Source of the DNA: an uncultured Clostridia bacterium
GTDB taxonomy: Bacteria; Bacillota; Clostridia; TANB77; CAG-508
Direction of reading: 5' to 3'
Assembly: GCA_947630065.1 (NCBI GenBank)
Contig: CANRGE010000001.1
Coordinates: forward strand, 18,840 to 82,839
Length of the DNA: 64,000 bases
Shown here: positions 23,663 to 33,600 of the stretch, piece after piece
Position numbering within the stretch: position 1 is the first letter of the stretch
How the letters are laid out: every line of letters starts with the position of its first letter
Translations under genes and position numbers: made by a program
Notes under the pieces: model-generated
The model's database searches: none
Seen by the model: only the letters and a program-made list of their open reading frames with translations
Told to the model about the DNA's origin: nothing

Positions 23663-23719
23663 TTTTTTGTTATTAAAAAGAAGTTAAAGGATTATTCTTT
23701 AACTTCTTAATACTCATTA

Positions 23720-24676
23720 TTAAATAAAATCATTAAATTCTTTTTTTATTCTTTTGATTTGTTCCTTAGAGAAATTTGAAAAATCTATATGAGAATTAAA
23801 ATTATCATAATTTAAAGAACGTGATACATCTTGTAGATGATATATAGCATAATTCCCCAATGCCACATTTTTTATTTCACGCTATTCTATATTTATTAAG
23901 CCCCAACTATTTAATAAATTAAGATATAAACGAATATTGGTATAACATATACTATTTGTATCACCATGACCCAAAATAAAACAAATATTCCTTATAGAAA
24001 AATCCTTATCATAAGGTATTGATGTTTTATTTAACTCTTTTAAATATAAGTATGTTCTTAATAAATCTATATTTTGACTATTTACCTTTGCGGGTTTTAG
24101 TAAAATTTCTGTAATTGCTTTATCATAATCTGTTGAAAAATTAGGAGTAATATAATAGTAATCACAATCTATCTTAATTAAATTATTATCACATAATTTA
24201 GCTAACGTATTATAAAAAGTTTGAGTACTTTTAATTCCTAAATTTTTACAAGTTTCTGAAATATTAAAGAAGTTTTTATTTATTCTTAAATTAGTCTATT
24301 CATCTGTTAAAATATTAGCTAAATTTATCATATAATAATATAATAACCACTATTTATTAGTTAATTTAATAGAGGAATTATCAATATTATTTTGACAAAA
24401 ACTTCCCTCGCCTCCAATAGTTCTATTATATCCATTTTTATAGCTATCATAGTAGCTAATCCAAAACTATTCTCTTTCATTTAACTATTGCTATGAACAT
24501 TCTTCTATAACATCAAAAGAAAAGTTATCTATTCTATTTACTTTCATATCCTAATATAAAGGATTATAAAGGTCTTTACATTTTTTATGTTCTCTCCAGC
24601 GTCTTTTAATATCAATAGATTGTCCTATATATACTTTTTTATTAACATTATTAGTAATTTTATAAATTCCTATCAT
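23720..24676 (-). CDS. free-standing GIY-YIG homing endonuclease (318 aa, 7 in-frame TAG)
   Basis: MIGIYKITNNVNKKVYIGQSIDIKRRWREH...NERE(TAG)FWISYYDSYKNGYNRTIGG. AGGTGA RBS. Absent from the ORF track because of TAGs. Confidence 0.75.
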
Positions 24677-24741
24677 TATTATTCACCTTATATAAAAAAG
24701 AAAGTTAAAGCCTATAAGACTCCAACTTTCTTTAGCTAATA

Positions 24742-24813
24742 TCACCGCAATTGGATTTGAACCAATGGTCTTGCCGTGAAAGGGCAAAGTCTTTACCACT
24801 TGACTATGCGGTG
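24742..24813 (-). tRNA. tRNA-Glu (anticodon UUC)
   Basis: Acceptor CACCGCA/TGCGGTG, D arm GTCAAGTGGTAAAGAC, anticodon arm TTGCC-CTTTCAC-GGCAA, T arm ATTGGTTCAAATCCAAT. Confidence 0.8.
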
Positions 24814-24817
24814 AGAA

Positions 24818-24888
24818 TTGCGGAACAAGGAGTCGAACCTTGATTTGAAGATAATGACTCTTCTGTCCTACCTTTAGACGATTCCGCG
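24818..24888 (-). tRNA. tRNA with anticodon CAU (Met, fMet or Ile2)
   Basis: Anticodon arm GAAGA-GTCATTA-TCTTC, T arm CAAGGTTCGACTCCTTG. The C1-A72 mismatch is like bacterial initiators, but the anticodon stem lacks the GGG/CCC run. Confidence 0.65.
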
Positions 24889-24889
24889 A

Positions 24890-24957
24890 ATTGCTATGTG
24901 AGGAATCGAACCTCACACCCTGTCTCGTCGCTAGTGTACTCCTTATACTAATAGCTA
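24890..24957 (-). ncRNA. aberrant tRNA-like element (no foldable anticodon arm)
   Basis: Canonical T arm GTGAGGTTCGATTCCTCAC, D-like GTAT-AAGGA-GTAC, acceptor TAGCTAT/ATAGCAA with one mismatch. Only about 19 nt lie where the anticodon arm plus variable loop should be, and I could not pair them. Confidence 0.3.
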
Positions 24958-25102
24958 ACCTTACTTCATGAAGTATTTTTCATATTAGAAAATTTAATTA
25001 TAATAAAACAATAAACACAAGCGTTCCAACAATTTGTTTTATCAATTTAACTTTACTATTTACTTTTAAAGGTAAGCTGAAAGTTATTAAAGCTGACCCA
25101 AG

Positions 25103-25176
25103 TTACGGTGGAAGGATTTGAACCTTCGGAGTGACGGAGTTAGAGTCCGCTGCCTTACCCGCTTGGCTACACCGTA
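25103..25176 (-). tRNA. suppressor tRNA, anticodon CUA (reads UAG), tRNA-Gln-like body
   Basis: TACGGTG TA GCCAAGCGGGTAAGGC A GCGGA CTCTAAC TCCGT CACTCC GAAGGTTCAAATCCTTC CACCGTA A. The anticodon is at 25141-25143. U1-A72, the D arm and the anticodon-stem GGA/TCC core match the tRNA-Gln(UUG) at 30050-30121. Confidence 0.85.
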
Positions 25177-25233
25177 ATAAATACTTTGAATAACAAAATA
25201 ATTAAAATTCTAAATTAAATAAATATATTATTA

Positions 25234-25851
25234 TTAAATTAAAATCCAATCTTCATCACTAATATTGTTAATGTCTTTCTTTTTACAAGGTAATCCTTCA
25301 TATTTACACCAATGTATAATTGTGTTATCACTAACACCATACATTTTACCTATTTTAACAAATGATGTAGTTCTAATTAAATTTTTTAATTCTTCTCTTG
25401 ACGGTCTATCAACTATTCTTCTACATTTTGCTACACAAGTGTTACATAATCCAGTTTTAGTTTTTTCATAAAGTTGCTTTCCACATTCAGAACAAAAATG
25501 TAAAGTTTTTTCTCTTAAAAGTTTTTTCTTCTCTCTTAATATGTTTGCATAATTCTCATCATATACTTTTTTCTATTCTAAATATTCTACAATATATAAT
25601 CCCGCATGAATTTCTCTATGACAATTAGCACAAACCAAAATACATTTTTTTAATTCTTCTAAATCTTTTTCTAAATCATGTGTGTTTCCTGTTGAAAGAC
25701 CATATTTTTTCTCTTCTGATATAATATGATGAAATTCTAATGCTGAATTAACCTTATTATATCCACATAAGCAACATCTCCCACCTGCGACTTTTACTAA
25801 ATTATCTTTACGCTTTCTTCTATAATTAGAAACATCTGTAGAACAACTCAT
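25234..25851 (-). CDS. free-standing HNH endonuclease with C-terminal HTH (205 aa, 1 in-frame TAG)
   Basis: CCLCGYNKVNSALEFHHI...KCILVCANCHREIH. The TAG at 25573 is followed in frame by ...HFCSECGKQLYEKTKTGLCNTC...IGKMYGVSDNTIIHWCK, ending at TAA 25234. Confidence 0.75.
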
Positions 25852-25871
25852 TATTCCTCCTTATAAATAAT

Positions 25872-25900
25872 ATTATATCATAATTTCTATAAAAAGTCAA
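25872..25900 (-). promoter_or_regulatory. sigma70-type promoter, family copy 8 (HNH gene and downstream tRNAs)
   Basis: Minus strand: TTGACT, 17 nt, TGaTATAAT. Confidence 0.6.
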
Positions 25901-25904
25901 ATAT

Positions 25905-26141
25905 TCAAGATTCCTCTAATGAAGATGGAATTACTCGTATTTGTGTTCGTGCTGTTACACTACATTCTTTTATATCAACTACCTTTACACGAGTGCCATA
26001 ACAAATATAATTATAATTATTATCCACCATTCTAATGATAGAACCTTTTTCTGGAATTTTCTCCTCTTCATTTAATTCATAATCATAAGTTTTGCCACGA
26101 AAAATCTTATTCTTATCTTTGAATTGAACAGTAATAAACAT
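25905..26141 (-). CDS. hypothetical protein
   Basis: Intact 78-aa ORF, AAGGAAG RBS, TGA stop. Confidence 0.5.
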   Translation of the reverse strand: MFITVQFKDKNKIFRGKTYDYELNEEEKIPEKGSIIRMVDNNYNYICYGTRVKVVDIKECSVTARTQIRVIPSSLEES

Positions 26142-26175
26142 AGATAACTTCCTTTCTGTTTTCTTTTATAATAAT

Positions 26176-26204
26176 ATTATATCATACTTTTTCCAAAAAG
26201 TCAA
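26176..26204 (-). promoter_or_regulatory. sigma70-type promoter, family copy 9
   Basis: Minus strand: TTGACT, 17 nt, TGaTATAAT. Confidence 0.6.
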
Positions 26205-26208
26205 ATAT

Positions 26209-26502
26209 TTATTTTTTTATTATTTGTGAAGAAAAAACCTCTTTTGTAATTTTTTTATCAAAATAATTCTTAATAAGTTGTAAGTTTTCTTCAATAAAAT
26301 CATTAACTTTCATAACAGCATCTATATCAACTTCACCCTTAGAACTGACTATTTTTATGGATTTATTGTAAAAAATATGAAATTCTTCACCGCTACTTCC
26401 ATATAAATAAAAATTTATATTATGACTACCTAAAACATTCGGCTCATCAAAAACTAAATCATACTTAAATCCTGTTGTTCTTTTAGAAAGGAAAACTCCC
26501 AT
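26209..26502 (-). CDS. hypothetical protein
   Basis: Intact 97-aa ORF with AGGTGAG RBS. Confidence 0.5.
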   Translation of the reverse strand: MGVFLSKRTTGFKYDLVFDEPNVLGSHNINFYLYGSSGEEFHIFYNKSIKIVSSKGEVDIDAVMKVNDFIEENLQLIKNYFDKKITKEVFSSQIIKK

Positions 26503-26507
26503 TTAAC

Positions 26508-27163
26508 TCACCTATTTAAATATTTTCTCTTTTCTTTGTTCTCATCTGATAATCCCATCAATACTCCTTCTCCATTATCAGCTACAAAAAATAAACGTTT
26601 CCGATTGCTTTCAGATATATAACATTTACAATTGGGTAATGCTCCCATCATATCAAGTAAAAATTGTGAATTAACAGAGATAACATTTTTTCCTAAAAAC
26701 CAAGCACCAGCAACATAATTTTTGGTTTCCCAGTATATTCTGCTTTATGAATTTTCACTGCTGCTTTTAACTCCTGTATAGAGGGAAGTTTAATCTCCAT
26801 GTCATAAGTACGTGATTTTTCTATAGTATCTAAGAAAAGAGAATTACTACTATCATCATCTAATTCCTCTAATTCCATGGGTTCAAAAAATTTTACAATC
26901 CTATAACTATCACAAATATATTGATTCCCATAAATTATTTTTGCACCTAATTTTATATTAGAAAATTCTGACATTTTTTTAGCTGATTTCAAAATACGCT
27001 TTGCGGCAGAGTATATTTTTGTGCTACCTTTTGACCGCATACTTTTTGTACAAATATCTTGTTTTATAGATGTTATTAAATTGTCTAATTCGAGCTTTGT
27101 TGCATCGTCCACTGTGGCAGTGGAGATTTTTACAAGTCTATTAAGCAATACTTCACTTGTCAT
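26508..27163 (-). CDS. hypothetical protein needing a -1 frameshift (or homopolymer correction) near 26719-26723
   Basis: Frame 1 starts at ATG 27163 after AAGGAG and ends at TAG 26693. The -1 frame continues ...NYVAGAWFLGKNVISVNSQFLLDMMGALPNCKCYISESNRKRLFFVADNGEGVLMGL to TGA 26508 with no start codon of its own. The shift site is CCA AAA ATT. Confidence 0.4.
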
Positions 27164-27189
27164 ACTATTTCTCCTTAACAAAATATTAT

Positions 27190-28119
27190 TTATTTTAAAT
27201 TTGCATTTCTTTCCCAAAAAATTCCATCTGCATATCCTTGAATTTTTTTATTTTCATCAGCCATTTCAAGTCTTTGTTCTGTCCATACACAATATTGTTT
27301 CTCTGCTTCAATGCCTAAATAATGTCTGTCAAGTTTCTTTGCAACAACACTTGTTGTTCCTGAACCTAAAAATGGGTCAAAAATTATATCTTTCGGATTA
27401 GAACTTGCCAATATCATTTTGGCAATAAGTTTTTCGGGCTTCTGTGTCGGGTGAGCAGTGTTTTCTGGCATCGACCAAAAAGGGATTGTTATATCGTCCC
27501 AAAAATTCGATGGGCAAGTATCACGATAATTGCTGGAATCTGTTTCAATCCAATCTTTGGGCTTTCCATCAACTCGATAAGGAGCAATAACCTTTTTGCG
27601 GATTTTGACTGAATCAAGGTTAAATGTATAATCATTACTTTTTGTAGCAAACCAAATGTCTTCCATTCCGTTTTTCCAGTTTGCCTTTGCACCACGACCT
27701 TTTTCTCTCTGCCATGTGATTCGGTTTTTGATGGTAAAAAATTCACCTAAAACTCTACCCACAATCAAACTCGTTTCCCAATCGCAGTAAACATATATTG
27801 AACCCGTTGGCTTTAACAGTGATTCTACTATTTCAAGCCATTTACGAGTATATTCTTCGTATTCAGTGTATTTTAGCTTTGTAAATTTTGTATTCCCAAA
27901 TACTTTGCTTAAATTATATGGTGGGTCTGCAATAATTAAATCCACACTTTCTTTAGGTAAATTAGGAATTACAGAAAAAGTATTCCCTAAAATGGTTTTA
28001 TCCAATACCGATTCAATATTTTGAATCGGTAAATCAACCTTGATACACCGTGAAAGATACTGTTGTCCTTCTGAAACAGTAGTATCAATTGTTTTATTCC
28101 TCGTAGATTTCTTATTCAT
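27190..28119 (-). CDS. DNA methyltransferase (N4/N6 family)
   Basis: DLIIADPPYNL, NTAHPTQKPEKLI and FDPFLGSGTTSVVA motifs. No TAG. Confidence 0.85.
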   Translation of the reverse strand: MNKKSTRNKTIDTTVSEGQQYLSRCIKVDLPIQNIESVLDKTILGNTFSVIPNLPKESVDLIIADPPYNLSKVFGNTKFTKLKYTEYEEYTRKWLEIVESLLKPTGSIYVYCDWETSLIVGRVLGEFFTIKNRITWQREKGRGAKANWKNGMEDIWFATKSNDYTFNLDSVKIRKKVIAPYRVDGKPKDWIETDSSNYRDTCPSNFWDDITIPFWSMPENTAHPTQKPEKLIAKMILASSNPKDIIFDPFLGSGTTSVVAKKLDRHYLGIEAEKQYCVWTEQRLEMADENKKIQGYADGIFWERNANLK

Positions 28120-28156
28120 TCTATATCACCTATTCATTTTAATAAGTATTTTGTAG

Positions 28157-28229
28157 TGCGCTTAGTGAGAATCGAACTCATACTCTCTAGATTAAGAATC
28201 TATTGCTCTACCTATTAAGCTATGGGTGC
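28157..28229 (-). ncRNA. tRNA-Lys(CUU)-like gene with three C-A mismatches in the acceptor stem
   Basis: Good D arm GCTTAATAGGTAGAGC, anticodon arm TAGA-TTCTTAA-TCTA, T arm ATGAGTTCGATTCTCAC. The acceptor is 5' GCACCCA against 3' TAAGCGC, with 3 of 7 positions as A-C or C-A. Confidence 0.45.
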
Positions 28230-28262
28230 ATTAAATTTGATTTTCTCTTTTTTACTATAATT

Positions 28263-28291
28263 ATTATAACATATTTTCAAGAGAAAATCAA
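28263..28291 (-). promoter_or_regulatory. sigma70-type promoter, family copy 10
   Basis: Minus strand: TTGATT, 17 nt, TATAAT. Confidence 0.55.
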
Positions 28292-28312
28292 ATTTTCAGT
28301 TTTTTTATTTTA

Positions 28313-28561
28313 TTAAAAATTTTCAATCAATTTTCTGCCACATTCTGGGCAAAATTTTGGAATATAATATCCTATATCTTCTCATTCGCCTCTACTTTCA
28401 TTCCATTTTGAAAATATGACTGTTGTTGCCATATTACTTCCAGATTTTATTTGTATATCATAGTCTTTTAAAGCTATACCAATTCCTATATAACTTAAAT
28501 CATTTTCTGGAGTTAATATTGACTCAACGGCGGCATTACAATAATATTTACAATATTGCAT
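28313..28561 (-). CDS. small Cys-rich protein with an in-frame TGA at 28382-28384
   Basis: The ATG overlaps the RNA ligase TAA (TAATG). MQYCKYYCNAAV...KWNESRGE(TGA)EDIGYYIPKFCPECGRKLIENF then TAA. The 22 codons after the TGA look coding (zinc-ribbon CPEC) but have no start. Confidence 0.4.
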
Positions 28562-29871
28562 TAAACACCTTCTTTCATCAATTCTTCAACTTCTTCTATG
28601 TCAGGTACTTCTGCTGTATCTTTAATTATGCCTTCTAATACCTTAAAGGCAAACGATTTAGTTTTATAAGCTGTAAAATGAGTTCTATTATCAATTCTTA
28701 CTACAACACCTTCAGTAACATGACTACCATTTGCTAAGGGTTCAGGTATATCCAAATATTTTTCGCATCTCTCATTTAAATCTTCCCAAGTTGTATATAA
28801 AAATTTTTCAACAAGCGGCACATATTCACAACCAAATCTTTCACACCATTTTATAGTTTCCTCTGTAGGTAATTCTATAGTTAATCCATCATCATTAGTT
28901 AAAGTTATACGATAGATATAACATTTATTTTCACCGCGGGCGCAACCATAAGTGAATATTGTTTCTTTTCCATACATTTTTTTGAAGTTTTTGTCTTTTA
29001 ACTTACTATTATCACACGTAGGCATTATAGGGGTATTTTCATCTATCCAGCCAACTATTTCTCCATATACAGTCATGCCTTTAGGCAATTTGTCAGCAAA
29101 AAAATTATGATATTTTTCACGGAATTTATTAGAGCCGTAAAAGCCACCATTAAAATTATCAAGAACAACACGACGAGTACCACTAACAACTTCAAATTCA
29201 GATTTAGTTTTGTCTTTTAAATGGAAAAGTTTCTTTAATATTTTATTTCTTTTTATGGTAGTAACCTTTAAAGTATTACTTACTCTAAAAGAAGTGCCAT
29301 GAAGCTTTCTGGTTATGTAGATAATATCATTTTTTTTGAAAGCACTTTCATTGTAAGCTAACTGTGCAGTGTCTATATGTTCTTCAAAGTAAGGGAAGCC
29401 AACAGTTTTGCGAGCTTCTTTTTTATTTTTAGCAATTTTAGGATTAGAAACATTAGATACTGTTTTACCGCGAGGTATATATTTCTGACATATAAGTTCA
29501 CCGTTAAGGACGGCAATTTTGTCGCCGTCAGATAATTTAGTTATGTCAGTATATTTTGCTAATACAGAAATAGGTAAGGCAAGACCATCAGATTTTTCGC
29601 CGCGAAGATTCAAAGCGCGTATGTTTCTTTTGTAAGGGTCAAGATAACCACCAACATTATTTCCATTTTCATCTTTCCTACGAACTAAATTGTTTTCGTT
29701 TGCAAATTTTTCACTAACTTGACCGTCAACAGGAAAATAAACAACTTTATCACCAACCTTATAGTCTAAACCAACTATAACGTTGTTGCCAAATATTTCG
29801 CAGCACTGTAATCTATCTGCATTAGAATGTTTGCGGATTTTATTTATAGTAGTTATATATGCACAATACAT
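28561..29871 (-). CDS. ATP-dependent RNA ligase (N-terminal OB-domain type)
   Basis: N-terminal INKIRKHSNADRLQCCEIFGNNVIVG...VVYFPVDG, motif I ITRKLHGTS, motif IV TEGVVVRID, motif V FTAYKTKSFAF. Sits between two tRNA islands. Confidence 0.7.
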   Translation of the reverse strand: MYCAYITTINKIRKHSNADRLQCCEIFGNNVIVGLDYKVGDKVVYFPVDGQVSEKFANENNLVRRKDENGNNVGGYLDPYKRNIRALNLRGEKSDGLALPISVLAKYTDITKLSDGDKIAVLNGELICQKYIPRGKTVSNVSNPKIAKNKKEARKTVGFPYFEEHIDTAQLAYNESAFKKNDIIYITRKLHGTSFRVSNTLKVTTIKRNKILKKLFHLKDKTKSEFEVVSGTRRVVLDNFNGGFYGSNKFREKYHNFFADKLPKGMTVYGEIVGWIDENTPIMPTCDNSKLKDKNFKKMYGKETIFTYGCARGENKCYIYRITLTNDDGLTIELPTEETIKWCERFGCEYVPLVEKFLYTTWEDLNERCEKYLDIPEPLANGSHVTEGVVVRIDNRTHFTAYKTKSFAFKVLEGIIKDTAEVPDIEEVEELMKEGV

Positions 29872-29909
29872 CTATTTCTCCTTTCATATCTCTCATCTTT
29901 ACTATAATT

Positions 29910-29938
29910 ATTATACCATATTTTGAAGAAAAAATCAA
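29910..29938 (-). promoter_or_regulatory. sigma70-type promoter, family copy 11
   Basis: Minus strand: TTGATT, 17 nt, TATAAT. Confidence 0.55.
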
Positions 29939-29966
29939 ATATTTTAATAAAAATTTTTCTTTTGAC

Positions 29967-30047
29967 TGCGCCCAGCAAGACTCGAACTTGCACGCCATAA
30001 GACATTAGAACCTAAATCTAACGTGTCTGCCATTCCACCATGAGCGC
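29967..30047 (-). tRNA. tRNA-Leu (anticodon UAG), class II
   Basis: Acceptor GCGCTCA/TGGGCGC, anticodon arm TTAGA-TTTAGGT-TCTAA, long variable arm TGTCTTATGGCGT, T arm GCAAGTTCGAGTCTTGC. Confidence 0.85.
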
Positions 30048-30049
30048 AA

Positions 30050-30121
30050 TTGTGGTAGCAGGATTTGAACCTGCGCATAATGGAGTCAAAGTCCATTGCC
30101 TTACCACTTGGCTATACCACA
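30050..30121 (-). tRNA. tRNA-Gln (anticodon UUG)
   Basis: TGTGGTA TA GCCAAGTGGTAAGGC A ATGGA CTTTGAC TCCAT TAT GCGCAGGTTCAAATCCTGC TACCACA A, with a U1-A72 pair. Confidence 0.85.
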
Positions 30122-30133
30122 AAATTTATATAA

Positions 30134-30817
30134 TTACATTAGCCGAGATTTAGCAATATCATAATAATTACTATCTATCTCAATGCCAATGAATTTTCTA
30201 TTAGTGTTTTTACAAGCGATTCCTGTCGTCCCGATTCCCATAAATGGGTCAAGAACTATTTCATTTTCTTTAGAAGAATTTTCAACAAATATTTGCATAA
30301 GTTCTACTGGCTTTTCTGTATTATGCAAATTTTTACCATCTTTACCTTTTGTTTTTACATTCTTAACTGATAATATATCACTCGTTCCACAATTATTTAT
30401 GCGGACTCCTTTACCTTTACGAAAAAACAAAATATATTCAAATGCTGACATATAATATTGCCCCATCACTTTATTACCCTTATCCCAAATCAAAGATTTA
30501 ATAAAATGAAAGCCGTTTTGCTCAAAAGTATTGAGCATATGAATAAGATTTTTATGATTAGTCATTATATAGCAATGACCACCATCTTTAAGAACTCTGT
30601 AAAATTCTGGGGCATATTCTTTACAATCTGTACTGTTATATGCAAAAACATTGCCATCATTAAAAATTCTTTCTTGCAACATACCACCAGTATTACCCGC
30701 ATTTCCTCTTGTAGTAACCTTATATGGTGGGTCAGTAATTAACAAATCAATACTATTATCTTGTATTTCTGAAAAATAATCCATACAATTAGCACATATT
30801 AGTTGCATTTTCTCCAT
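30134..30817 (-). CDS. DNA methyltransferase (N4/N6 family)
   Basis: DLLITDPPYKV, NTEKPVELM and LDPFMGIGTTGIA motifs. No TAG. Confidence 0.85.
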   Translation of the reverse strand: MEKMQLICANCMDYFSEIQDNSIDLLITDPPYKVTTRGNAGNTGGMLQERIFNDGNVFAYNSTDCKEYAPEFYRVLKDGGHCYIMTNHKNLIHMLNTFEQNGFHFIKSLIWDKGNKVMGQYYMSAFEYILFFRKGKGVRINNCGTSDILSVKNVKTKGKDGKNLHNTEKPVELMQIFVENSSKENEIVLDPFMGIGTTGIACKNTNRKFIGIEIDSNYYDIAKSRLM

Positions 30818-30829
30818 ACTTTTTCTCCT

Positions 30830-31789
30830 TTAAGCTACTTTTAAAGCTTTACTTTCTAACAAAATTCTCTTTTCAATAGATTTTGCTGGTAACTCTTTAG
30901 CAAATTCTGTAACTGCATTTATAAAAGCCCATTTACTTGGTGTACCATATTCTTTTGTGTAAGTATTGAAAATAGTAATAACTTTTTCAGCTTCTTTATT
31001 ATTAAGCTGCAACTCTTTAGCAACATATGTCTTTTTAAAATCATCTTGTAATTCTTGAATTGTTGCCGTTTCAGCTGTTGTTTGTGAAACTATTTTTTGA
31101 ATTTCTCCTTTTTTTTCTGAAAGAAATTCCACACTTTCACTAAACTCTGCGGCAATATCTTTTCTACCTCTATGAACAGCTCTGCAAAGTATAAAATCGT
31201 TAATAGGAATTATCATACCATTTTCGCAAACTTGTCTATATACTCCAACTCTAATCTTAAAAGCACTCTTTCCAACCATTGAGTTGTCTATGTAATAAAG
31301 CATATACAAGTTGCTATCATCATTATCTACTGTAAAAGGATTATCAAGGTCAATTGCACGAAGATGTAATCTTTCTGGCGTAGTAAGAGCATATTGAAAA
31401 CGATATTTTGCAAGAGGACTATCATTGATAATATTCATTACTTCATTATCATCAAAATAAGAATATTTATCAGTTACTATTCCATAAATTTTATCATAAA
31501 ATTCTCTGGCATAAAGTTCTCGTTTGTTTTTATCACAGAAGTTTGTCACTCTATCACGTATAATCTTATTTGCAAGTGATGAATTAGTAGTACTAATTTC
31601 TGTGATAAAATTAGCAGGAAAACCAACTGCTTTTCCAAGACTTTTTAATCCATATTCAGAGTAGTTACTTATATTACATATTTTGTCAAAATTAGATGCT
31701 TCAATATGAAAAGTATTCTCTGTATCTGTTATGCTTTTTATAGACTGTCTTACATCATTAAAGCTCATTGTTCTTGATTTAATATTCAT
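30830..31789 (-). CDS. DUF932-like protein
   Basis: 319-aa intact ORF. VGVYRQVCENGMIIP matches the R.vC.NGm signature I associate with DUF932. Confidence 0.5.
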   Translation of the reverse strand: MNIKSRTMSFNDVRQSIKSITDTENTFHIEASNFDKICNISNYSEYGLKSLGKAVGFPANFITEISTTNSSLANKIIRDRVTNFCDKNKRELYAREFYDKIYGIVTDKYSYFDDNEVMNIINDSPLAKYRFQYALTTPERLHLRAIDLDNPFTVDNDDSNLYMLYYIDNSMVGKSAFKIRVGVYRQVCENGMIIPINDFILCRAVHRGRKDIAAEFSESVEFLSEKKGEIQKIVSQTTAETATIQELQDDFKKTYVAKELQLNNKEAEKVITIFNTYTKEYGTPSKWAFINAVTEFAKELPAKSIEKRILLESKALKVA

Positions 31790-31828
31790 ATCAATTCTCC
31801 TTTTTAGACAACTAATAATATTTGCGAA

Positions 31829-31917
31829 CGGTGTGGGTGAGATTTGAACTCATACATCAATAGCTGATTACTGACGGTTTAGCAAACCGCTGCCTTACCA
31901 ATTAGGCTTACCACACC
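31829..31917 (-). tRNA. tRNA-Ser (anticodon GCU), class II
   Basis: Acceptor GGTGTGG/CCACACC, anticodon arm GCGGT-TTGCTAA-ACCGT, long variable arm with ATCA/TGAT stem, T loop TTCAAAT. Confidence 0.8.
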
Positions 31918-31931
31918 TTGTAAAATGATAA

Positions 31932-32031
31932 TGTGGTATGCAAGTCCTGCCCTTGCTGGTCGTTACCTATCGAATAAACGACCTATTTTCGATAGGTTGA
32001 ATATGCGTCATCTCGCCGCATTGATACCACA
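31932..32031 (-). ncRNA. structured RNA candidate X1 (closing stem, two hairpins, H-type pseudoknot)
   Basis: Minus strand: TGTGGTAT...ATACCACA (8 bp), ATGCG/CGCAT hairpin, CCTATCGAA/TTCGATAGG (9 bp) whose loop GGTCGTT pairs with downstream AACGACC (7 bp), and GCAAG-GGCAGGA-CTTGC next to the 3' closing strand. GC-rich island in AT-rich DNA. Confidence 0.45.
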
Positions 32032-32082
32032 TATAATAAACTATTTTACTTTATAACTATTGATTATATGATTTTTATTTAG

Positions 32083-32242
32083 TGGAGCGCACGAGCCTCG
32101 AACTCGCAACCTCTGTCAGCTAACAGCGTGCCTATCCGCGACAATCTACATACTTATGAAACGCTACTTTCAAAGTTTCGCCAAGCTGCTCCCCTGCATT
32201 ACAGTGAGTCTTATACTTGTTTTGTCTATACACCCGCGCCCC
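32083..32242 (-). ncRNA. tRNA-Ala-like / tmRNA-like element X3 (G3-U70 acceptor, T arm, about 107-nt insert, 4-nt loop in place of anticodon loop)
   Basis: 5' GGGGCGC pairs with 3' GCGCTCC-A, including a G3-T70 wobble. T arm GCGAG-TTCGAGG-CTCGT, D-like GCG-GATAGGCA-CGC, stem CTGTT-AGCT-GACAG. About 107 nt separate the 5' acceptor strand from the D arm. Confidence 0.45.
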
Positions 32243-32245
32243 AAA

Positions 32246-32314
32246 TGGTACTGATAGTAGGACTTGAACCTACACATTTGATATAATCATTGTTCTTCAT
32301 TAAACTATATCAGC
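32246..32314 (-). ncRNA. tRNA-like element X2 with encoded CCA and a 3-nt loop in place of the anticodon loop
   Basis: GCTGATA TA GTTT-AATGAA-GAAC A (A)TGAT-TAT-ATCA(A) ATGT GTAGG-TTCAAGT-CCTAC TATCAGT A CCA. Standard cloverleaf spacing except the anticodon loop is 4 nt short. Ends 3 nt before X3. Confidence 0.45.
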
Positions 32315-32467
32315 ACATGAATAAGCTGATTTACCTCACAGCCATTGGTCGTGTTAATTTTATTCATGCGTGAGAACACAAACTCACTACTCTTAACGCC
32401 GAGTCCACGCCTACTCATATTTCTTTTATATCCATATTATTGATATAAATTACTCTATTTTCAGTTT

Positions 32468-32544
32468 TGGTACGCCTTAATGGATTTGAACCATCAACTT
32501 ACCGCTTAGAAGGCGATTACTCTATCCTATTGAGTTAAAGGCGT
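32468..32544 (-). tRNA. tRNA-Arg (anticodon UCU), CCA encoded
   Basis: ACGCCTT TA ACTC-AATAGGATA-GAGT A ATCGC-CTTCTAA-GCGGT AAGTT GATGG-TTCAAAT-CCATT AAGGCGT A CCA. Confidence 0.85.
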
Positions 32545-32547
32545 ATA

Positions 32548-32620
32548 AGCTGAATGACGGACTTGAACCGTCAACCTGTTGATTACAAATCAACTGCACC
32601 ACCAATTGTGCTAATTCAGC
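32548..32620 (-). tRNA. tRNA-Thr (anticodon UGU)
   Basis: GCTGAAT TA GCAC-AATTGGTG-GTGC A GTTGA-TTTGTAA-TCAAC AGGTT GACGG-TTCAAGT-CCGTC ATTCAGC T. Confidence 0.85.
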
Positions 32621-32792
32621 ATAGAATATTTTTAAATATTCCTCTTGTGTACAATTACGACAAGCTTCTTTTTTCGCTTTCTTTTTTTTGTTTTCAATTA
32701 CTTTGTGTCGCGGCAAATCTTGTAGAAGTTTTCTTTTAGTACCAAAATAAAATTGTTTTTTAGTCATTTTCTTTTTCATTGTTACTACCTCT

Positions 32793-33128
32793 TTATTTTT
32801 TATATATGGAGTAATTACAATTTTCGTTATCGTTATCGTTATCGTTTAAGAGAAATATTTCTCTTATACCACTCTCCGTATCATATTTACAAATAGCTCT
32901 ATATTTTGAACCAGTATTTAATAATGTTAAAATGGATTCAAGTCTGCCTCCCCATTCAAATAAGCTATTTGTATAACTTTCTTTTGCTTCAACACATTCT
33001 GTTTCTGATATATAGTTATTATCACAATTTTTCTATGTTTCTTTTATACACATTACAAAACGGTTTATTTGTGTACAAATACGTCTTAATTCTTTTTCAA
33101 TAATCTCAAATTTTATTTCCACATTCAT
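32793..33128 (-). CDS. hypothetical protein (111 aa, 1 in-frame TAG) with (Asn-Asp)3 repeat
   Basis: MNVEIKFEIIEKELRRICTQ...KET(TAG)KNCDNNY...FLLNDNDNDNENCNYSIYKK. The cgttat x3.5 repeat at 32825-32846 encodes NDNDND. Confidence 0.5.
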
Positions 33129-33149
33129 AACCTTCCTCTTTTTATTAAG

Positions 33150-33460
33150 TGCAGGAAAAGGGACTTGAACCCTCACGACCGAAGTCAATGGATTTTCGTA
33201 CCACTCTATGTCACCATAGCCATTTTACAATGTTGTGGTCTGGAGTACGTCTTTACCATATCTTATGACTTAGGTAGTTGGTGTATACTCTCTACACACG
33301 GTTAAAAACCTTGCACGGCGTTCTCTATTCGCCTTCGCCGTTTTAGCCAACTTCTACTCTTAGCGTTTCCGCTAAGGCACTCTCTATTTTTTAAATAGTA
33401 TTACTTAAAGTAACAGAATAGATTAAAGTCCATTGCGTCTGCCTATTCCGCCATTCCTGC
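33150..33460 (-). tRNA. tRNA-Leu (anticodon UAA) interrupted by a group I intron in the anticodon loop
   Basis: 5' exon 33460-33426: GCAGGAA TG GCGGAATAGGCAGACGC A ATGGA CTT. 3' exon 33196-33150: AAAA TCCAT TGACTTCGGTCGT GAGGG-TTCAAGT-CCCTT TTCCTGC A. Joined loop is CTTAAAA. The mature class II tRNA is 82 nt. Confidence 0.85.
33197..33425 (-). mobile_element. group I intron (229 nt) between U34 and A35 of tRNA-Leu(UAA)
   Basis: Follows a U and ends in G (…GAGTGGTACG). Same insertion point as the classical cyanobacterial and plastid tRNA-Leu intron. GC-rich paired segments such as GCCTTAGCG-GAAA-CGCTAAG and GGCG..CGCC. Confidence 0.8.
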
Positions 33461-33475
33461 ATTTTCTATAATAAT

Positions 33476-33504
33476 ATTATATCATAGATTTTTTAGAAAA
33501 TCAA
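33476..33504 (-). promoter_or_regulatory. sigma70-type promoter, family copy 12 (tRNA-Leu UAA)
   Basis: Minus strand: TTGATT, 17 nt, TGaTATAAT. The predicted start is about 10 nt upstream of the tRNA 5' end. Confidence 0.6.
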
Positions 33505-33526
33505 ATATTTATTTTTAATTTTCTAA

Positions 33527-33596
33527 TTTTCTTGGTGGGAGTCGAACCCACATTACCTACTTTATGTAGGTATCCTTCCATTTAGACCACAAGAAA
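33527..33596 (-). ncRNA. unusual 70-nt tRNA-like gene (anticodon loop CAUAAAG)
   Basis: Perfect acceptor TTTCTTG/CAAGAAA, T arm GTGGG-TTCGACT-CCCAC, anticodon stem ACCTA/TAGGT. The loop has A at position 33 and would present UAA on a class I body with a 3-nt variable loop. Confidence 0.45.
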
Positions 33597-33600
33597 ACCA

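Follow-up and report, generated by a model that had tools for sequence, protein, structure and literature searches.

A glutamine-type amber suppressor tRNA of a TAG-recoded phage appears to derive from a CUG-type tRNA-Gln lineage

Introduction

Suppressor tRNAs are key parts of stop-codon recoding in phages, and their origins show how a virus changes its genetic code. The locus that we consider here, a tRNA gene with the anticodon CUA on a contig recovered from a gut metagenome bin, raises two such questions: which amino acid does this tRNA deliver to UAG, and from which tRNA did it arise? The original prediction held that it is of Gln identity and that it is a duplicated and retargeted copy of the phage's own tRNA-Gln, which has the anticodon UUG. 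These are separate claims, and as we describe below, the evidence treats them differently. The window (i.e., the whole stretch of DNA that was analyzed, 64,000 nucleotides) corresponds to C1:18840-82839, where C1 is one of the 92 contigs of a 2.15-Mb metagenome bin.

Results

TAG as a sense codon on contig C1

Contig C1 is 153 kb long with a G+C content of 28.7%, and because it encodes topoisomerase II, RecJ, DnaB, NrdD and both HNH and GIY-YIG endonucleases, we take it to be a large phage contig. With TAG as a stop, stop-to-stop ORFs of at least 100 aa cover 65% of the window, and with TAG as sense they cover 87%; for ORFs of at least 150 aa on C1, the two values are 37% and 75%. The same treatment leaves the coverage of three other contigs of the bin unchanged, and in these contigs TAG is used as a stop. 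The 121 non-overlapping ORFs of C1 contain 460 in-frame TAG codons (vs. 165 CAG and 927 CAA), and their own ends are TAA in 97 cases and TGA in 24. TAG is the second Gln-like codon of the C1 phage: it makes up about 30% of the Gln-like codons and outnumbers CAG by almost 3 to 1, and its use reaches the replication genes too (6 TAG codons in DnaB and 6 in RecJ).

Elsewhere on this contig, the ORFs at its right end, beyond the window (C1:139000-153374), depart from the others in lacking TAG and in being relatively rich in CAG. This segment could be an early region that keeps the standard code, or it could be DNA that is flanking or foreign. A 28-nt direct repeat (ACGCTTGTTATATAACAACGTGAGCTGC) occurs three times at about C1:145.5 kb, and 29 in-frame CGG codons are present in those phage ORFs of C1 that are at least 120 aa long.

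No near match of the phage was found among GenBank phages or in IMG/VR (including by a DnaB search of IMG/VR). Many contigs of 100-190 kb carry RecJ homologs with about 60% identity, and those of them that we fetched for comparison are themselves TAG-recoded; in the examined regions of the closest RecJ relatives (L003-L006), no tRNAs were found.

The CUA tRNA gene

The gene at issue and its anticodon are as follows:

25103-25176, minus strand: tRNA(CUA), a predicted Gln-type amber suppressor (ARAGORN; Rfam RF00005; nearest neighbors all tRNA-Gln)
25141-25143, minus strand: anticodon CUA, TAG on the plus strand (ARAGORN and reading of the sequence)

ARAGORN places the start of the gene at 25102 or 25103 and its end at 25176 on the minus strand. 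The 74-nt sequence (TACGGTGTAGCCAAGCGGGTAAGGCAGCGGACTCTAACTCCGTCACTCCGAAGGTTCAAATCCTTCCACCGTAA) matches Rfam family RF00005 across the full model (positions 1-71) with 62 bits, a score that is well above the gathering threshold of the family (29 bits) and within the range of the other phage tRNAs. In the ARAGORN fold, the cloverleaf is intact and regular, and all conserved tertiary positions are present. The acceptor stem has 7 bp and opens with U1-A72/A2-U71/C3-G70; the D arm has a 3-bp stem with A13/A22 and an 8-nt loop with GGG, including G18G19; the anticodon arm combines a 5-bp stem with the loop CUCUAAC and has U35; the variable loop is of class I, with 6 nt (CACUCC); and the T arm (GAAGG-UUCAAAU-CCUUC) is followed by A73, with CCA not encoded. 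The gene at 25103-25176 is a real, well-formed tRNA.

The label 'Pyl' that ARAGORN attaches to this gene stems from the anticodon alone, and the shape is not that of tRNA-Pyl. The hallmarks of tRNA-Pyl are a compact D loop without G18G19, a 6-bp anticodon stem, a 3-nt variable loop and an atypical T loop, and in their places the suppressor has an 8-nt D loop with GGG, a 5-bp anticodon stem, a 6-nt variable loop and the T loop UUCAAAU.

One might still suppose that the CUA tRNA is decayed or a decoy and that TAG is decoded by a host factor or by an undetected tRNA, a view that draws some support from a survey in which TAG suppressor tRNAs were detected in just 40% of the phage genomes recoded at TAG (Borges et al., bioRxiv 10.1101/2021.08.26.457843). 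But given the intact cloverleaf, the full set of tertiary positions and the normal bit score, together with the fact that this is the sole CUA tRNA both on C1 and in the bin while the phage has 460 TAG codons to read, we consider such a decoy extremely unlikely.

Amino acid read at TAG

Because the fetched phages with related RecJ proteins are TAG-recoded themselves, codons were compared directly. At positions where either member of an aligned pair has TAG, in orthologs from two of these TAG-recoded relatives (L003 and L006), the commonest residue opposite is Q, in 28 of 134 cases against a background of 2.9%, followed by K and E. When residues were scored against the substitution profile of each amino acid as drawn from the same alignments, Gln gave the best pooled fit, 44 nats ahead of Lys; and when only the TAG codons of the window phage were considered, with each of the relatives taken alone, Gln led Lys by 9.6-13.8 nats and Glu by 15-18. 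At the level of a single codon, TAG 175 of RecJ falls in an alignment column that is Q in 120 of 120 homologs, one of which is an NCBI protein annotated under code 11 with an identical context (AIVINNQLSKNYPNK).

Two other sources of comparison were less informative. RecJ alignments from the PDB are too distant, the column of TAG 175 being M or L there, and a tblastn search of the phage ORFs against the other contigs of the bin, as standard-code comparators, gave too few homologs with TAG positions. Overall, the ortholog alignments support well the view that TAG fits Gln better than any other amino acid.

Gln isotype of the suppressor

The isotype of the tRNA was judged from its nearest neighbors and its identity elements. 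Among the 45 tRNAs of the bin, the best matches to the suppressor are the tRNA-Gln(UUG) of the phage and the tRNA-Gln(CUG) of the bin; Tyr, at 67%, is the first other isotype to follow. The seven annotated matches in GenBank phages are tRNA-Gln without exception (7/7). Of 200 sampled Clostridia genomes, 68 have a match to the suppressor, and among the Clostridia loci that were fetched, the best match is a tRNA-Gln in 28 of 29 (20 UUG and 8 CUG). The features of the tRNA-Gln family (U1-A72, a 3-bp D stem with A13/A22, a class I variable loop and U35) are all present.

Gln identity of the suppressor is therefore well supported by its sequence neighbors, and the part of the original prediction that saw in it a retargeted tRNA-Gln stands, in that all identifiable nearest neighbors are tRNA-Gln and TAG aligns like Gln; the part that derived it by duplication is not supported.

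Origin of the suppressor

The proposed parent is the other tRNA-Gln gene of the window:

30050-30121, minus strand: tRNA-Gln(UUG) of the phage, 72 nt (ARAGORN; Rfam, 74.2 bits)

If the suppressor arose within this phage by duplication of the tRNA-Gln(UUG), the copy must have undergone U34C and G36A, two single-base insertions (in the D loop and the variable loop) and about 15 further substitutions. There are several reasons to take this account seriously. ARAGORN finds ten tRNAs on the minus strand of the window, and in pairwise comparisons of 11 tRNA-like genes, the CUA and UUG genes are each other's best match, with 76% identity as against 46-65% for all other pairs. The two genes are only 5 kb apart in the same tRNA-rich region, and the features that had been listed for both of them are indeed there: U1-A72, the D arm GCCAAG(C/T)GG(G)TAAGGC, the anticodon-stem core GGA/TCC and the loop frame CUnnnAC. 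They are also alike in the T loop TTCAAAT, in A73 and in the lack of an encoded CCA.

The resemblance, however, has less to say about kinship than these numbers suggest. The statement that the other tRNAs of the window do not have these features fails for the T loop TTCAAAT, which is found in the Glu, Ser and Arg tRNAs of the window as well. Moreover, bacterial tRNA-Gln in general have U1-A72, this D arm and the CUnnnAC loop, as does the tRNA-Gln(CUG) of the bin; these features therefore mark the isotype and not a kinship specific to the two phage genes. There is no derived character common to the pair, and the flanks of the two genes have no similarity.

Comparisons outside the window are less favorable still to an origin by duplication. 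Many bacterial tRNA-Gln and phage CUA tRNAs are closer to the suppressor than is the phage's own tRNA-Gln(UUG), which ranks 28th of 61 by closeness, and in 33 of the 200 Clostridia genomes some tRNA outscores it. The UUG tRNA, for its part, is closer to other tRNAs than to the suppressor: it has 91-92% identity over the aligned core to the tRNA-Gln of T4-like Citrobacter phages and of Bacillus phage G, and 86% over the full length to Enterococcus and Listeria sequences. In a maximum-likelihood tree of tRNAs (anticodon masked, 70 columns), it belongs to a clade with other phage and Firmicutes tRNA-Gln (support 97/92) that excludes the suppressor, and the suppressor sits in an unresolved polytomy, nearest to Ruminococcus CUG and phage CUA tRNAs. 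The tree separates the two genes, and forcing them to be sisters costs 24 log-likelihood units, but with only 70 columns the AU test does not reject the sister relation (p = 0.10).

The sequences to which the suppressor is closest point to another source. A pattern that combines its anticodon stem and T arm with the variable loop, and that allows R at position 36, retrieved 27 GTDB records, mostly of Ruminococcus (including R. albus), in which all 28 matching genes (28/28) are tRNA-Gln(CUG); their identity to the suppressor is 78-85%, and 84-85% for most, in what is an ascertained sample, the pattern having been taken from the suppressor itself. The same genes have the 6-nt variable loop CAYUCC, the T stem GAAGG/CCUUC and C34 of the suppressor, and some have A73. 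From the R. albus-type tRNA-Gln(CUG), the suppressor differs by 10 substitutions and 1 indel (vs. 17 substitutions and 2 indels from its own tRNA-Gln(UUG)), and of those 10, one is the anticodon change G36A and six fall in three compensated pairs of the acceptor stem. Over positions 10-66, the differences from Ruminococcus tRNA-Gln(CUG) come down to an extra G in the D loop, position 27, G36A and one base of the T loop. The tRNA-Gln(CUG) of the bin itself is more remote, with only 65-72% identity.

Other phages carry similar tRNAs. A metagenome scan for a Gln-like D arm followed by CUA returned 13 loci, mostly phage-like tRNA arrays, with CUA tRNAs of up to 84% identity to the suppressor (80-84% for the closer ones), two of which have the acceptor start UACGG. 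An exact search of IMG/VR for the suppressor's motif of anticodon, variable loop and T arm, with CUA, gave no match. In the tree, a phage-array tRNA-Gln(CUG) and the CUA tRNA of another contig (L069:2062-2136 and L077:132-206) are sisters (93/90), a pair that shows, at the level of sequence, that a one-step switch between CUG and CUA occurs among phage tRNAs.

Since the duplication model requires two anticodon changes and two indels where a CUG-type ancestor requires one anticodon change, and the parent that it names has closer relatives elsewhere, we regard descent from the phage's own UUG tRNA as disfavored and rather unlikely. On present comparisons, the suppressor looks derived from a CUG-type tRNA-Gln lineage by a single change of the anticodon.

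Genomic neighborhood

Several features surround the suppressor on the same strand:

25872-25900, minus strand: promoter-like site TTGACT-17-TATAAT with an extended -10 TG, upstream of the HNH gene (consensus scan, 11 of 12 matches)
25234-25851, minus strand: HNH homing-endonuclease gene, 205 aa (PHROG HNH families, E = 2.5e-20; translation)
24742-24888, minus strand: tRNA-Met(CAU) and tRNA-Glu(UUC), downstream of the suppressor (ARAGORN; Rfam)
24697-24733, minus strand: terminator-like hairpin followed by a T run, just 3' of tRNA-Glu (consensus scan)

That the suppressor lies downstream of an HNH gene which itself needs one TAG read-through was correctly noted in the original prediction. The HNH gene is directly upstream of the suppressor on the minus strand, and its one in-frame TAG is codon 93 (25575-25573), which lies between the CxxC...HH...CANCH nuclease motif and the C-terminal part. 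Judging from the consensus matches, the HNH gene, tRNA(CUA), tRNA-Met and tRNA-Glu probably form a candidate single transcript, running from the promoter-like site at 25900-25872 to the hairpin at 24733-24697. The tRNA-Met(CAU) at 24818-24888 (minus strand) has a C1xA72 mismatch, a hallmark of bacterial initiator tRNA, which gives it an initiator-like look.

At a broader scale, the genes for DnaB, an HTH protein, PhoH, AAA_24, YorF and topoisomerase are contiguous and without tRNAs in the relatives L003 and L006, and in the window (about 23700-33600) the same stretch of genes is broken by tRNA genes and by two endonuclease genes, one HNH and one GIY-YIG. This segment of the window looks like an insertion-rich island of tRNAs and homing endonucleases.

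Aminoacylation in the putative host

The phage is linked to its putative host by co-binning only. The comparison of CRISPR spacers and shared DNA gave only low-complexity chance matches, and the bin has no CRISPR array. In this bin, which is 96% complete, we found no GlnRS, the best match to TIGR00440 (40.9 bits) being on the GluRS gene; we did find one GluRS (311 bits) and GatB (601 bits). If the bin is the host, charging would therefore proceed via GluRS and GatCAB, the bin being without GlnRS but having GatB. No GlnRS or GluRS, other aminoacyl-tRNA synthetase, GatB or release factor was found on the phage contig C1. The bin has one class I release factor (C30:19274-20353 of G000), which has a PxT motif of the RF1 type (PDT); no RF2 was found in the bin by PF00472 or tblastn, yet TGA seems to end ORFs of the bin contigs.

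Bacterial GatCAB recognizes U1-A72 and the D loop (PMC2811023), and at least one GluRS that is specific to tRNA-Gln ignores the anticodon (PMC2777447). By contrast, the identity set of E. coli GlnRS, as given in PMC2777447 (citing Jahn 1991 and Hayase 1992), comprises G2-C71, G3-C70 and G73 plus U35, and at the first three of these the suppressor has A2-U71, C3-G70 and A73. The U1-A72 pair of the suppressor fits charging by GluRS and GatCAB, as far as identity elements can indicate.

An indirect route brings with it a different possible outcome: the tRNA might be glutamylated by GluRS in a host lacking GlnRS and then not be amidated by GatCAB (e.g., owing to the extra base of the D loop), such that TAG means Glu. 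The bin is in fact without GlnRS, and Glu is the second or third commonest residue opposite TAG. Against this reading, the Gln profile is ahead by 15-18 nats with each relative alone and one TAG falls in an invariant Q column; the pair U1-A72 is present, and genuine tRNA-Gln with D loops of 8 to 9 nt exist in Clostridia. We therefore judge it very unlikely that TAG is read as Glu, and retain Gln as the preferred assignment.

A conserved small protein and a common acceptor start

Upstream of the HNH gene lies one more conserved feature:

25908-26141, minus strand: conserved 78-aa ORF, a predicted five-strand beta protein (homologs beside Gln-like tRNA(CUA) genes)

The HNH gene sits between this ORF (MFITVQFKDKNK...GTRVKVV) and the suppressor. 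In eight other loci, homologs of the 78-aa protein occur within about 1.5 kb of a CUA tRNA, mostly adjoining it; seven of these loci are among the 13 metagenome loci that were obtained from the tRNA pattern alone, and one is from IMG/VR. When the search was led by the protein, it returned 15 IMG/VR loci, all in tRNA arrays, with a CUA tRNA within 3 kb in 6 of the 15 (the homologs as a whole are at L002, L069-L071, L073, L074, L079, L081 and L086-L100). Some of these IMG/VR phages have tRNA-Gln(UUG) genes by the 78-aa ORF, which we considered as a source of the suppressor and rejected: their identity to it is 52-64%, and their D arm is different. The protein has no significant match in Pfam or PHROGs. 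It is confidently predicted (pLDDT 90) to form a five-strand beta fold, for which a fold search of the PDB returned nothing significant, the best match being the N-terminal domain of PriA (TM 0.46-0.55, E > 1).

The acceptor start of the suppressor also recurs. The sequence UAC...GUA (25170-25176 and 25104-25110 of the window) is present in 9 of 21 other unique phage CUA tRNAs as against 0 of 54 tRNA-Gln, an enrichment with a Fisher p of 2e-6 among sequences that are not independent. The CUA tRNAs with this start are from L069, L071, L073, L077-L081 and L095, and some of them have bodies that are not Gln-like.

These two observations allow a speculation, to which we give low credence: in Firmicutes without GlnRS, phages might reassign TAG to Gln via GluRS and GatCAB, with a convergent or common U1-A72/A2-U71/C3-G70 signature that, together with the 78-aa beta protein, would make up a previously unrecognized 'code-change module' that aids charging or competition with RF1.

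Discussion

The reading that best accounts for these results is that the gene is a functional phage suppressor of the Gln type, that it belongs to a lineage derived from a CUG-type tRNA-Gln, and that TAG serves the phage as a second Gln codon. Weighing the sequence evidence as a whole, we put the probability of this complete reading at about 0.7.

How such a tRNA could have come about and could work may be pictured as follows. A CUG-type tRNA-Gln, similar to those of Clostridia and Ruminococcus, would have acquired the anticodon CUA by G36A, as in E. coli supE, and its acceptor stem would have been remodeled to U1-A72/A2-U71/C3-G70, as in other phage CUA tRNAs; the suppressor thus most likely belongs to a phage-borne suppressor lineage that goes back to a CUG-type tRNA-Gln, and would not be a recent copy of the phage's own UUG tRNA. 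Its gene would be co-transcribed with those for HNH, tRNA-Met and tRNA-Glu, from the promoter-like to the terminator-like site, and because CCA is not encoded, the suppressor would need CCA addition. If the bin is the host, its single GluRS would first attach Glu to the tRNA, and GatCAB would then convert this Glu to Gln, a step for which known enzymology suggests that U1-A72 is required. At UAG, the suppressor would compete with the RF1 of the host.

The evidence thus points to a simple route for the change of code, in which the anticodon of a CUG-type tRNA-Gln would have changed once and TAG would then have taken the place of the rare CAG, and it speaks against the more elaborate account of duplication and retargeting. 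If the host is indeed without GlnRS, the suppressor must pass GluRS and then GatCAB, and this is relevant to the frequent reassignment of TAG to Gln.

As a gene, the suppressor is one more example of a published class. Gut phages that reassign TAG to Gln ('code 15') and carry CUA tRNAs are well described, and include crAss-like, Lak and Garnet/Topaz phages and the phAss-1 group (Borges et al., bioRxiv 10.1101/2021.08.26.457843; PMC10607447; PMC9523058). The suppressors of the phAss-1 group were assigned to Gln by tRNAscan-SE (PMC10607447), and validation of TAG-to-Gln by mass spectrometry is reported in PMC9523058. Like these phages, the one considered here comes from the gut, is low in GC and has hundreds of in-frame TAG codons that align to Gln, and its putative host in the bin uses the standard code; its Gln-type CUA tRNA is phage-borne, and no aminoacyl-tRNA synthetase or release factor of the phage was found. 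As a point of difference, its recoding extends to replication genes and is not confined to late genes. Borges et al. proposed host GlnRS as the charging enzyme (bioRxiv 10.1101/2021.08.26.457843), whereas the putative host here is without GlnRS. Phage-encoded amidotransferase subunits have been mentioned as a possible indirect route in recent papers on crAss-like phages.

A second parallel is with E. coli supE (glnV), in which the anticodon of tRNA-Gln(CUG) is changed to CUA. The suppressor resembles it in having what appears to be the body of the CUG isoacceptor with the single change G36A, and in its predicted reading of UAG as Gln. It differs in its place on a phage genome, where it is a permanent component of the code, whereas supE is a mutant allele of the host, and in lacking the GlnRS elements G2-C71, G3-C70 and G73, such that its charging would probably be by GluRS and GatCAB. 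The Ruminococcus albus and other Oscillospiraceae tRNA-Gln(CUG), with 84-85% identity, have the D arm, anticodon stem and U1-A72 in common with the suppressor, and in R. albus A73 as well; unlike the suppressor, tRNAs of this type have the anticodon CUG, the acceptor UGGGG(C/U)G, a D loop of 7 nt and the T loop UUCGAAU, and most of their genes encode CCA.

With its CUA anticodon, in a phage genome with many in-frame TAG codons that align to Gln, the suppressor belongs to the known class of code-15 phage suppressor tRNAs. The present analysis adds a more specific origin, which looks to be CUG-type and supE-like, and the context of a putative host without GlnRS.
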